Virus record (IMG/VR): IMGVR_UViG_2651869748_000001
Location: 1-7,640 of that record
Reading direction: 5' to 3' (one strand)
Origin: a virus
Lineage: Monodnaviria; Loebvirae; Hofneiviricota; Faserviricetes; Tubulavirales
Length of the DNA: 7,640 nt
A program made the translations under genes and the position numbers. The stretch's first letter is position 1; every line of letters begins with the position of its first letter. The notes beneath the pieces were generated by a model. That model had not been told where the DNA came from. It saw nothing but the letters and a program-made list of their open reading frames with translations, and did no database searches. Positions 2,915 to 7,640 of the stretch are shown one piece after another.

Positions 2915-4222
2915 CTAAACCTCAGCATGACGCATCAGGGCGCGACGATAAACAAAATAAAGACGAAAAACAGTAAGTGCATAAATAAAATATTCCAGAA
3001 CAGGCCTTAACAACAAATCATACGCTGATGAAAAATCGGATGTGTCAACTGTAAAATGTACAGTCCCAATCACCGGAAGATAAAATGAAAAATCAACCTC
3101 AAGTGGCTGAGCCCCATCAGAACGATGATTACCAGGAAAAAATAACTTGTCGAAATCAATAAATAACCACTCCTTAGGTAGCTTATCAATAAACTGAGAG
3201 ATTAAAGAATCATAATCATTTGATGAATCACCCGATTCATTTTTAACAATATCAGACAGCTGGTCATCAAAAGTATTCAGTGAATTATTTACATCAGCCT
3301 GAGAAAAAGAAAAGAAACTATTCAAATCATTCACTGAAACCCAAATACGCTGCAACCAGCCAAGAATATCACCAAGCCAGCCATCGCCGGAGGAACTGCC
3401 ACCGCCTGAGTTACCACCACCTGAGCTGCCGCCGCCTGAGTTACCACCACCTGAGCTGCCACCGCCTGAGTTACCACCACCGGAACTGCCACCACCTATG
3501 CCACCACCGCCAGAACTGCCACCGCCAGAACTGCCACCGCCAGAGCTGCCACCGCCAGAACTGCCGCCGCCTGAGTTACCACCACCGGAACTGCCACCAC
3601 CTGAGCTACCGCCATCCTCCTTATCATCGGAGAATGCAGGATCTACAGCAACTGGTTTCCAGTTGGCAGTACAAACCGTATCATCATCGGGATTACAAAT
3701 AAAAGGATTGCCGGTTGCCTCATAAATACACCCCTGCACATTAACATAACGGGTCCCGTCATCACCTTTATAAACACCAGGAAAAGTCATACCATCAAGA
3801 ACCGGACGAGAAAGACAAATCTCGTCAGTTGGCGGCTTATTATATTCAGGTGTCAAATCCCCCTCACCACCCTGAAAATCAAGAGTGCAGGTTTCCCACT
3901 CTCGCTTCTCTAAATCCCAGACTTTATATGCGGACCACCGGGCATGGACAAAAACCCCAACGGTGGAAGGCGCGCTAGACGAGTCTGATAGCTTACTACC
4001 GCAATAATGAATTATTCCGGAGCACGCGTCGTAACCACTGGAACCACAATAAATATGACCAGCTCCCCTGGCTAATTTAATCGATGCTCCCGCATCTGAA
4101 TAAGCTGTTCTGCAGTTGAAACGGCCAAAACACTGAACAAGCTTATCCGGATCTTCTTTCTCCTCAGCAAAAGAAAGCGAAGAAAAGAACAAAAACAGAA
4201 ACGGAAAAATAAGACGAATCAA
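2915..4222 (-). CDS. pIII-like adsorption / minor coat protein with Gly-Ser linker
   Basis: 435-aa ORF starting with TTG at 4220-4222, 7 nt downstream of AGGAG. Signal peptide (MIRLIFPFLFLFFSSLSFA|EE), Cys-rich N-terminal domain, 76-aa (GGGSS/GGGNS)n linker and hydrophobic C-terminal anchor. Position after the gVIII terminator matches Ff gene III. Confidence 0.8.
   Translation of the reverse strand: MIRLIFPFLFLFFSSLSFAEEKEDPDKLVQCFGRFNCRTAYSDAGASIKLARGAGHIYCGSSGYDACSGIIHYCGSKLSDSSSAPSTVGVFVHARWSAYKVWDLEKREWETCTLDFQGGEGDLTPEYNKPPTDEICLSRPVLDGMTFPGVYKGDDGTRYVNVQGCIYEATGNPFICNPDDDTVCTANWKPVAVDPAFSDDKEDGGSSGGGSSGGGNSGGGSSGGGSSGGGSSGGGSSGGGGIGGGSSGGGNSGGGSSGGGNSGGGSSGGGNSGGGSSSGDGWLGDILGWLQRIWVSVNDLNSFFSFSQADVNNSLNTFDDQLSDIVKNESGDSSNDYDSLISQFIDKLPKEWLFIDFDKLFFPGNHRSDGAQPLEVDFSFYLPVIGTVHFTVDTSDFSSAYDLLLRPVLEYFIYALTVFRLYFVYRRALMRHAEV
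3386..3613. repeat. Tandem 15/30-nt repeat encoding the (GGGSS/GGGNS)n linker of the pIII-like protein
   Basis: About 15 consecutive near-identical 15-nt units (plus strand ctgagttaccaccac / ctgagctgccaccgc and variants) between 3386 and 3613, translating on the minus strand to GGSSGGGSSGGGNSGGG... Confidence 0.9.
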
Positions 4223-4242: not shown

Positions 4243-4266
4243 TAAAAAAGCGCCCCGAAGGGCGCT
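4243..4266 (-). terminator. Rho-independent terminator downstream of the major coat protein gene
   Basis: Minus strand reads AGCGCCC-TTCG-GGGCGCT followed by TTTTTT: a perfect 7-bp GC-rich stem (4249-4255 pairing with 4260-4266), a UUCG tetraloop and a U-tract (4243-4248). It lies 16 nt after the gVIII-like stop and before the gIII-like RBS. Confidence 0.75.
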
Positions 4267-4548: not shown

Positions 4549-4719
4549 TTAATTAACAGCATCGCTGAACATCCGGCAGACCAGAGTGAAAATAACACCA
4601 AGACCAAAGCCAAGAAGCCAGCAGACAATCCAGACATACAGAACGGCCCAGTAAAGCTCCCCGTCCTGTACGCCAGAATTCAGTGCGGATAAAACACCGC
4701 TGAAATCAAATTCAGTCAT
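4549..4719 (-). CDS. Small hydrophobic virion protein (gIX/gVII-like)
   Basis: 56 aa from ATG at 4717-4719 (MTEFDFSGVLSALNSGVQDGELYWAVLYVWIVCWLLGFGLGVIFTLVCRMFSDAVN) with one transmembrane-like helix. The ATG overlaps the upstream ORF stop (ATGACTGA), suggesting translational coupling. The ORF track's longer version would need a GTG start at 4750-4752 with no RBS. Confidence 0.45.
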   Translation of the reverse strand: MTEFDFSGVLSALNSGVQDGELYWAVLYVWIVCWLLGFGLGVIFTLVCRMFSDAVN

Positions 4720-4852
4720 AATAACGCTGAACAGTAATGCTTTGTGAGTCACAGGCGCGAATCAGTTTTATTCCGATGCCAAAACCTGAAGAAAATAAAA
4801 TCATTGCAGGCGCAGCAAATAAAACAAAGTTCAGAAAATCAGCGTCAGACAT
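4712..4852 (-). CDS. Small hydrophobic virion protein (gVII/gIX-like)
   Basis: 46 aa from ATG at 4850-4852 (MSDADFLNFVLFAAPAMILFSSGFGIGIKLIRACDSQSITVQRYYD), with AAGG about 8 nt upstream. Begins 5 nt after the stop of the 141-aa ORF. The alternative ATG at 4904-4906 lacks an RBS and would overlap the upstream gene by 50 nt. Confidence 0.45.
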   Translation of the reverse strand: MSDADFLNFVLFAAPAMILFSSGFGIGIKLIRACDSQSITVQRYYD

Positions 4853-4856
4853 ATCA

Positions 4857-5282
4857 TCAGCCTTTTTCTTTACCTGCGGGCAGCGCACCCAGCGGCTGAC
4901 CGTCAAAACGTTTCATGGAGCCGGAAATAAAACGATACCAGACACCATGACGTTCAGAGCCTGTCGACCATGAGTTAACATCCACCGTGAGATAAACAGG
5001 TTTGCCCTGCAAATCAGGACATGAATTAAAAAATTTAAAATCCTCCTCAGTACAGGAAAATCGCTCATGCTCCTCACGGCGGACTTTTAATTTTCGGTCC
5101 TCATACGGATAGGCAATAACAATGGCATATTTGGGTTTAGCCTCAGGGTTATAATGAGAACCCGTGGGCTTTAACTCCTCATCATTTATGACAGTGGCGT
5201 GAATAAAAAATCCCGCCATTGTCATACCTGCAGTAAAACCCTCAGGGGAAGGAAACGGAAAACTGTCATAAATTTGATTCAT
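4857..5282 (-). CDS. Hypothetical protein in the gV position (possible ssDNA-binding protein)
   Basis: 141-aa ORF, ATG at 5280-5282 with GAGGAG 8 nt upstream, starting 30 nt after the rep stop. The CDS call is solid; the function is inferred from position only (between rep and the small coat genes) and I recognise no motif. Confidence 0.6.
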   Translation of the reverse strand: MNQIYDSFPFPSPEGFTAGMTMAGFFIHATVINDEELKPTGSHYNPEAKPKYAIVIAYPYEDRKLKVRREEHERFSCTEEDFKFFNSCPDLQGKPVYLTVDVNSWSTGSERHGVWYRFISGSMKRFDGQPLGALPAGKEKG

Positions 5283-5312
5283 AAATCAGACTCCTCAATG
5301 TTAAAAATTCAG

Positions 5313-7407
<2,095 letters not shown>

Positions 7408-7451
7408 TTTTGAGATGTATGATGAGGTATGAAAAAACAGAGGGGATATAT

Positions 7452-7640
7452 ATGCCAACAAAGCACATAAACGATGTTTTATGGAGAAAGGTAGAGAAAG
7501 AAACTGTAAAAGTGGTAACAACACTGGCAATACCAGTAAAAGATACCAAAGTTTTAGAATGGATAATCGCAAAAGGACTGGAGTCTATAACAGAAGATGA
7601 CTACAGGAAATTTGCAAAGACGGATGCAACAAAAAAATAA
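7452..7640 (+). CDS. Small hypothetical protein, candidate transcriptional regulator of the phage switch
   Basis: 62 aa from ATG at 7452-7454, with GAGGGG 6 nt upstream, ending at TAA 7638-7640 (the ORF track starts earlier at 7410 with a weaker RBS). Divergent from rep, immediately downstream of the operator-like palindromes. AT-rich, lysine/glutamate-rich, and I recognise no family; the regulator role is inferred from context. Confidence 0.5.
   Translation: MPTKHINDVLWRKVEKETVKVVTTLAIPVKDTKVLEWIIAKGLESITEDDYRKFAKTDATKK

Follow-up and report, generated by a model that had tools for sequence, protein, structure and literature searches.

The question raised by this locus is the function of the protein encoded between the replication gene (rep) and the small coat genes of an inoviral genome. 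At that position the preliminary description of the sequence had expected the single-stranded DNA (ssDNA)-binding gene V (gV) protein of roughly 90 aa and had instead found an unfamiliar protein of 141 aa. The stretch of DNA analyzed (the window) is 7,640 nt long. Its large open reading frames (ORFs) are all encoded on the minus strand; together they form a complete inovirus gene set.

Coding status and genomic setting of the 141-aa gene

The following features of the window define the locus:

5313..7313, minus strand: rolling-circle replication protein (Rep) of 666 aa, Phage_GPA / RstA-like (Pfam PF05840, E 5.9e-49; PHROG 91)
5291..5296, minus strand: Shine-Dalgarno sequence GAGGAG, read from the sequence, 8 nt upstream of ATG 5282
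4857..5282, minus strand: CDS of the 141-aa gV-position protein (ATG start at 5282, TGA stop at 4859-4857; same CDS in RefSeq)
4712..4852, minus strand: gVII-like hydrophobic protein of 46 aa, read from the sequence (RefSeq 141-nt CDS at the same position)
4222..2915, minus strand: gIII-like protein of 435 aa with a Gly/Ser-rich linker, from the ORF list

The coordinates (5282..4857, minus strand), the length and the RefSeq CDS all agree with the placement first described, a 141-aa protein between rep and the small coat genes; the 426-nt RefSeq CDS is labeled "hypothetical protein". The start codon sits 30 nt past the Rep stop codon (TGA 5315-5313), and a gap of 4 nt separates the end of the ORF from ATG 4852 of the 46-aa gVII-like gene. 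Downstream, two small hydrophobic proteins are followed by an 86-aa major-coat-like protein, and the remaining genes encode the 435-aa gIII-like, a gVI-like and a Zot/gI-like protein and a gIV secretin. PHROG 91, to which the window Rep belongs, is labeled "nicking at origin of replication", and a tblastn search with this Rep matched, at ~30% identity, the replication proteins of the Vibrio phages fs2 and VFJ and of Shewanella phage Dolos, the RstA of CTXphi, and gpA proteins of the P2 type.

The Nei-Gojobori dN/dS of the 141-aa gene was 0.12-0.17 against five diverged copies, and the ORF is therefore a genuine gene under purifying selection. Homologues with identities to the window protein as low as 24% retained both its length and its position. 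A 64-aa ORF with a TTG start (4712-4906, minus strand) overlaps the end of the gene; it is over-extended, and its likely start is ATG 4852.

Several other observations concern the genome as a whole. The gIII gene contained a long stretch of GGGSS/GGGNS-type repeats (window 3280-3700), and its counterpart in Escherichia coli strain AST205 is 465 aa vs. 435 aa in the window, suggesting that the repeat copy number of the linker varies. The same type of linker variation was described for UPPhi gene III (PMC7307601). A strong GC-rich hairpin with a T-run (AGCGCCC-TTCG-GGGCGCT TTTTT) was found at 4249-4266 (minus strand), just 3' of the major coat gene; at the matching position, after gene VIII, IKe has an annotated stem-loop terminator. 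A 76-aa ORF (7410-7640, plus strand), upstream of rep and divergent from it, is a candidate regulator and had no match in Pfam or NCBIfam. AST205 has two small plus-strand RefSeq genes upstream of rep that are also without a family. GC content ranged from 0.55 in rep through 0.50 in the secretin gene, 0.45 in the 141-aa gene and 0.39 in the gVII-like gene to 0.34 in gVI, a mosaic that fits modular genome assembly.

Of 5,426 complete E. coli genomes, 42 contained chromosomal prophage DNA that shares 90-99% identity with the window. In AST205 (L001, 1-14229) the prophage adjoins hipA/hipB and is present as at least two complete tandem copies and part of a third. A search for the E. coli dif sequence that tolerated 2-3 mismatches found none in either the window or the 20-kb AST205 region, and a literature search yielded no E. 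coli phage of this kind that bears a name.

Six related contexts were read: L004, L006 (metagenomic assembly, long contigs), L007, L008, L030 and L009, the last being an E. coli prophage of different build. In all of them the homologue lay between a PF05840 Rep and the coat genes, following the Rep either immediately or after one small ORF; the order Rep - gV-position gene - gVII/gIX/gVIII was shared by the window and all six, with the same slot used in L009. In the remote relatives an ORF of 57-69 aa lay between Rep and the homologue (L007 4528-4737; L008 3569-3742; L030 about 2447-2680); this ORF had no Pfam match and no counterpart in the window. The two proteins diverged together: across the same loci, identity to the window was 58, 42-43 and 37% for Rep and 59, 34-37 and 25% for the 141-aa protein.

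A further locus, the metagenomic contig L005, carried two inoviral prophage copies side by side. The first encodes a Phage_GPA Rep and a 131-aa homologue; the second (11932-13547), directly downstream, encodes a Rep_trans Rep and, in the equivalent slot, a PF07459 RstB. VFJ and Dolos, whose Reps match the window Rep by tblastn, have annotated 104-aa ssDNA-binding proteins in the same slot. Published comparisons show similar patterns, in that genes II and V are the only genes common to UPPhi and YpfPhi (PMC7307601) and phiLf2 has RstA/RstB in place of phiLf gII/gV (bioRxiv 10.1101/2023.12.30.573655). From L005, VFJ/Dolos and these published patterns it follows that the slot is that of an ssDNA-binding protein, swapped with Rep as a module. 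None of the other scanned proteins of the phage was SSB-like.

Two side observations were made at L005. The Phage_GPA Rep of the first copy is split by an IS21-family element encoding IstB and a transposase (L005 1153-5326). The RstB of the second copy (L005 13203-13547) matched PHROG 929, the CTXphi RstB family, which is labeled "RstB sensor of two protein system" and placed in the moron category; this label seems to mistake the family for the RstB sensor kinase, an unrelated protein.

Protein family and remote link to PF17426

The protein had been called unrecognizable, and the standard libraries (Pfam, NCBIfam, PADLOC and PDB sequences) indeed gave nothing significant. The best Pfam match was PF17426 at 13.7 bits (E 0.068) vs. 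a cut-off of 25, NCBIfam and PADLOC gave zero matches, and a PDB sequence search with the family profile returned only a chance-level aminopeptidase C (E about 0.45). Searches with blastn and tblastn against 50,697 GenBank phage records found no relative, either as DNA or as protein. The one strong match was to PHROG 30648, a family of unknown function (E 7.1e-95, residues 1-141 of a 141-position profile), which all 19 aligned relatives also matched.

Among 1.84 billion representative proteins, the family profile matched nine, nearly all from E. coli, and a word-indexed search of 5.8 billion clusters returned 23. The exact 141-aa sequence occurred on 141 contigs, and all named members were from E. 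coli and labeled hypothetical; many of the matching strains were human isolates. The two largest 90% clusters of the protein contained 279 and 196 member sequences. No family member was found on GTDB species-representative contigs, and scans of metagenomes and IMG/VR recovered mostly 76-100%-identical copies, with L030 as the exception. A scan of IMG/VR for PF17426 likewise recovered solely copies of 85-100% identity. One human-gut metagenome contig with 1.2x coverage (L090, 1749-2174) carried a gene copy interrupted by several stops and frameshifts, for which sequencing error is a more likely explanation than a pseudogene.

PF17426 ("Putative_G5P") was the top Pfam match for 10 of the 19 family members, all of these matches being weak (best E 0.006). 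The best-scoring relative was the L009 homologue, at 17.6 bits (E 0.0043) still below the 25-bit gathering threshold; it and the window protein matched PF17426 through the same C-terminal region, roughly residues 85-122. As a reference for PF17426, a UPPhi-type E. coli prophage was located via its IKe-like assembly genes. The 105-aa product of its gene V matched PF17426 (E 1.6e-51) as well as PHROG 1547 (E 2.4e-50), and the prophage has a Phage_CRI-type gene II (PF05144/PF05155). PHROG 1547 was also the second most frequent PHROG match of the 141-aa family.

Using hhalign, the 19-sequence family alignment matched 10 PF17426 members with a probability of 71% (E 3.7e-5) over beta3-helix-beta4-beta5, and a 23-sequence alignment gave 60%, with E values for the link of about 4e-5 to 9e-5. 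At 60-71% the link falls short of decisive, and it covers mainly the C-terminal half of the protein. Columns that are invariant in both families coincided at V96/V73, W105/W82, G113/G89 and Y116/Y92 (beta4-loop-beta5). The score was 33.5 vs. 11-12 for reversed alignments; 200 column shuffles gave a mean of 11.8 and a maximum of 20.8, and 200 block shuffles a maximum of 26.7. A relaxed hhalign alignment was colinear over residues 20-128 and PF17426 positions 1-105, pairing the invariant G24/F26 with G5/F7. When the family was divided into two disjoint halves, both matched one and the same part of PF17426, with probabilities of 24% and 10%. The hhalign probability could not be raised, because the scans made to deepen the families gave mostly close copies.

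Judged by these profile comparisons, the PHROG 30648 family is probably a distant homologue of PF17426. The 141-aa protein is not filed under PF17426, because its score falls short of the Pfam threshold. Its identification as the YpfPhi/CUS gene V product itself was rejected: that gene is PF17426 with a Phage_CRI Rep, and all named members of the 141-aa family are from E. coli. PHROG lists the PF17426 counterpart as "unknown function". The YpfPhi review describes YPO2274 and YPO2275 as the replication module and cites disruption solely for YPO2274, not YPO2275 (PMC4266046).

Predicted fold and proposed function

The preliminary description had proposed structure prediction as a check for an OB fold. 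An AlphaFold run with 14 close sequences gave a pLDDT of 39 and was unusable for fold search; 19 sequences including remote homologues gave a pLDDT of 75.7 and a pTM of 0.68, with a pLDDT of 82-91 over residues 21-100. Both models had the same order of strands and helix. The parts of the protein, mapped on the window, are:

5226..5282, minus strand: residues 1-19, conserved N-terminal extension (D-x-F-x-F-P-x-P-x-G-F; alignment; pLDDT 38-58)
4908..5225, minus strand: residues 20-125, predicted OB-fold core (AlphaFold model)
5028..5087, minus strand: residues 66-85, charged central segment KVRREEHERFSCTEEDFKFF (model secondary structure mapped on the sequence)
4860..4907, minus strand: residues 126-141, conserved F-D-G-x-P-L motif followed by a Pro/Gly/Lys tail (alignment; pLDDT 35-50 at the end)

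The predicted core comprised strands beta1 (residues 20-31), beta2 (52-62) and beta3 (67-76), a helix (79-86), and strands beta4 (95-102) and beta5 (116-118). Three strands, a helix and two further strands are the classical OB-fold order. A long loop (32-51) joins beta1 and beta2, the low-confidence loop between beta4 and beta5 holds the invariant W105, and the invariant W115 and Y116 stand at the start of beta5. The charged central segment remarked on at the outset was quoted correctly and covers residues 66-85 (nt 5087-5028); in the model it forms strand beta3 and the helix between beta3 and beta4. The predicted model thus has the five-stranded OB barrel with a beta3-beta4 helix by which the SSB/PriB superfamily is recognized.

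Foldseek against the PDB ranked SSB and PriB chains first (E about 1e-3, probability up to 1.0), and against BFVD it returned mostly phage SSBs, one of them from Thermus phage OH3, an inovirus. The Ff gene V protein (gVp) structure was absent among the fold-search matches listed. The fold of the 141-aa protein is therefore likely to be an OB fold whose nearest structures are ssDNA binders of the SSB/PriB type; the modest Foldseek scores and moderate model confidence keep this assignment short of certain.

Outside the core, residues 1-19 precede the part alignable to PF17426 (the relaxed hhalign alignment begins at residue 20), and G15 and F16 are invariant across the family alignment. The extra length relative to gene V proteins of 87-105 aa is made up of this extension, the 20-residue beta1-beta2 loop, and the C-terminal F-D-G-x-P-L motif with its flexible tail. 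With a pI of 6.1 and a net charge of -2 the protein is close to neutral (pI 5.8-8.9 across the family), which speaks against a simple analogy with the basic gVp. Of its 141 residues 20 are aromatic, and it ends in ...LPAGKEKG.

A predicted barrel fold of the kind found in ssDNA-binding proteins makes it most likely that the 141-aa protein coats the phage's DNA. This reading, which is the best supported, also rests on the conserved slot, the co-divergence with Rep and the weak, reproducible profile link to PF17426. With a probability of about two in three, the protein would be the phage's divergent ssDNA-binding protein, built on an SSB/PriB-like OB fold and represented by PHROG 30648; as such it is most likely the functional counterpart of the Ff gene V protein and of CTXphi RstB. 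An ssDNA-binding protein of divergent sequence was one of the two possibilities offered by the preliminary description, and the predicted fold, the PF17426 link and the slot all speak for it, while the clear structural match to Ff gVp that would have made the case ordinary did not appear. For the other possibility, a morphogenesis or regulatory protein, no support was found. DNA binding, cooperativity, oligomeric state and a role in assembly are properties that we infer rather than observe.

In the mechanism proposed, the Phage_GPA-type Rep would nick the replicative form, and rolling-circle synthesis would displace the plus strand. The 141-aa protein would coat this displaced strand, making contact with ssDNA through its conserved aromatic residues F26, W105, W115 and Y116 and the basic residues K49, K51, R68, R111, R117 and R125. 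Coating would prevent the return to double-stranded DNA, and the coated genome would be delivered for export to the Zot/secretin machinery, at which the 141-aa protein would give way to coat protein. The protein may also keep ssDNA available for Xer-type integration, as has been said of RstB.

The main competing explanation, an unlikely one, is that the OB fold serves contact with the Phage_GPA Rep or origin recognition. The protein would then be a Rep-specific accessory or regulatory factor, a PriB-type adaptor or gene X-type modulator in place of a stoichiometric ssDNA coat. In its favor, every family member with a readable context follows a PF05840 Rep, and the two diverge together. The near-neutral charge, unlike that of the basic gVp-type proteins, the conserved aromatic/acidic extension outside the PF17426-alignable part and the presence of PriB among the structural neighbors would suit an accessory factor as well. 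What weighs against it is that VFJ and Dolos, whose Reps the window Rep matches by tblastn, fill the slot with annotated ssDNA-binding proteins, that the phage would be left without any SSB candidate, and that the remote profile link leads to gene V proteins whose partner is a Rep of another type, Phage_CRI. A more novel reading is, in our estimate, quite improbable. Here the 141-aa family and PF17426 would together be a class of inoviral gene V proteins in its own right, SSB/PriB-like, marked by the beta3-beta4 helix and evolutionarily unrelated to Ff gVp. Its 141-aa branch, near neutral and locked to one Rep type, would dock its D-x-F-x-F-P peptide on the Phage_GPA Rep or on host SSB-interacting proteins and act as a Rep-coupled ssDNA loader, not as a generic electrostatic coat.

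The tandem prophage copies next to hipA raise the thought that the protein serves integration above all, as was first assigned to CTXphi RstB, presenting or stabilizing a folded ssDNA attachment site for the host Xer recombinases and having little role in virion production. A UPPhi-type prophage likewise lies in tandem next to hipA, and UPPhi901 integrated in tandem at the dif site (PMC7307601); RstB, which fills the same slot in the neighboring L005 prophage, has been described as necessary for integration and as possessing an ssDNA-binding-like region (PMC3545932). Against this stand the lack of a dif-like site in the window or the 20 kb of L001 and the lack of a sequence relation to RstB (hhalign 0.1%). 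The proposal is also a sub-case of ssDNA binding and no true alternative, and we hold it to be a distinctly small chance. That the OB fold has nothing to do with nucleic acid, being for example a glycan-binding module like the B subunit of AB5 toxins or a moron product unrelated to replication, is highly improbable. SSB-type matches dominated every fold search, PADLOC gave no match, an A-subunit gene is absent, and the gene is tightly packed in a replication/structural operon and co-diverges with Rep. By eye the protein has no signal peptide, since its N-terminus is acidic/aromatic and has neither a basic n-region nor a hydrophobic core.

An ssDNA-binding role would give a probable function to a protein called "hypothetical" in every source name read. 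It would also make complete the gene map of a set of filamentous E. coli prophages for which the literature search found no description, with better annotation of inoviral prophages as the practical gain. Most likely, this is an ordinary function in an unfamiliar sequence. The locus illustrates how Rep and an ssDNA-binding partner move and diverge jointly as a replication module; a new biological principle would follow only if the Rep-coupled reading were true.

Comparison with known systems

Among known systems, the closest is the PF17426 / PHROG 1547 gene V of the YpfPhi, CUS and UPPhi prophages, the only reproducible sequence-profile link of the 141-aa family. Like the 141-aa gene, it directly follows the replication gene in filamentous prophages of Enterobacterales, and prophages of both types occur in tandem next to hipA. 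PF17426 proteins differ in being shorter and basic (105 aa, pI 9.3-9.8, 9.35 for the reference member, vs. 141 aa and pI 6.1) and in pairing with a Phage_CRI/G2P Rep, whereas the 141-aa protein pairs with a Phage_GPA (PF05840) Rep. Neither residues 1-19 of the 141-aa protein nor its C-terminal tail has a counterpart in PF17426, whose own function is putative.

Bacterial and mitochondrial SSB and PriB supplied the nearest structures, with OB domains at 3-16% sequence identity. The Pfam SSB family matched neither the 141-aa protein nor the 19 family members. E. coli SSB carries an acidic C-terminal tip, DDDIPF. The 141-aa protein ends in GKEKG and thus has no such tip, and unlike the bacterial/mitochondrial SSB and PriB proteins it is encoded in an inovirus replication module.

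The gene V protein of Ff and IKe (PF02303, Phage_DNA_bind) shares the genomic slot, an OB-type beta barrel and the proposed role in coating the plus strand. Cooperative binding of ssDNA as a dimer and translational repression of gene II are further traits of the Ff-type protein. The Ff barrel is not known to have a beta3-beta4 helix. The 141-aa model has this helix, and the nearest structures among the matches listed are not of the gVp type. PF02303 matched none of the 19 family members, even at E values up to 10, and M13 gVp has a pI of 9.2 vs. 6.1.

CTXphi RstB (PF07459) occupies a slot interchangeable with that of the 141-aa family, as the neighboring L005 copies show, and PF07459 matched no member of the family. 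The Pf1 ssDNA-binding protein (PHROG 1144, 144 aa) is annotated as such and is close to 141 aa in length. The orf104 product of fs2 and VFJ (PHROG 5738) is also annotated as ssDNA-binding and in VFJ follows a Rep that the window Rep matches by tblastn. Four of these proteins served as negative controls for hhalign and were rejected as relatives of the family, with probabilities of 0.1% for an RstB-like protein (PF07459 E 5.3e-26), 0.2% for IKe gVp (PF02303 E 2.1e-23), and 0.5% each for Pf1 g5p and VFJ orf104.

Proteins of the gene V slot span 87 aa in f1/M13 gVp, 88 aa in IKe, 104 aa in VFJ orf104, 105 aa in UPPhi, 114 aa in the RstB-like protein and 144 aa in Pf1. The 141-aa protein, initially called atypically large, is so relative to the gVp-type proteins of 87-114 aa; given the 144 aa of Pf1 it lies at the upper end of the inovirus range and not outside it, and the argument from size is correspondingly weaker than first stated. 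On the reading preferred here, it would be one more among the mutually unrecognizable ssDNA-binding families that fill the inovirus gene V slot.
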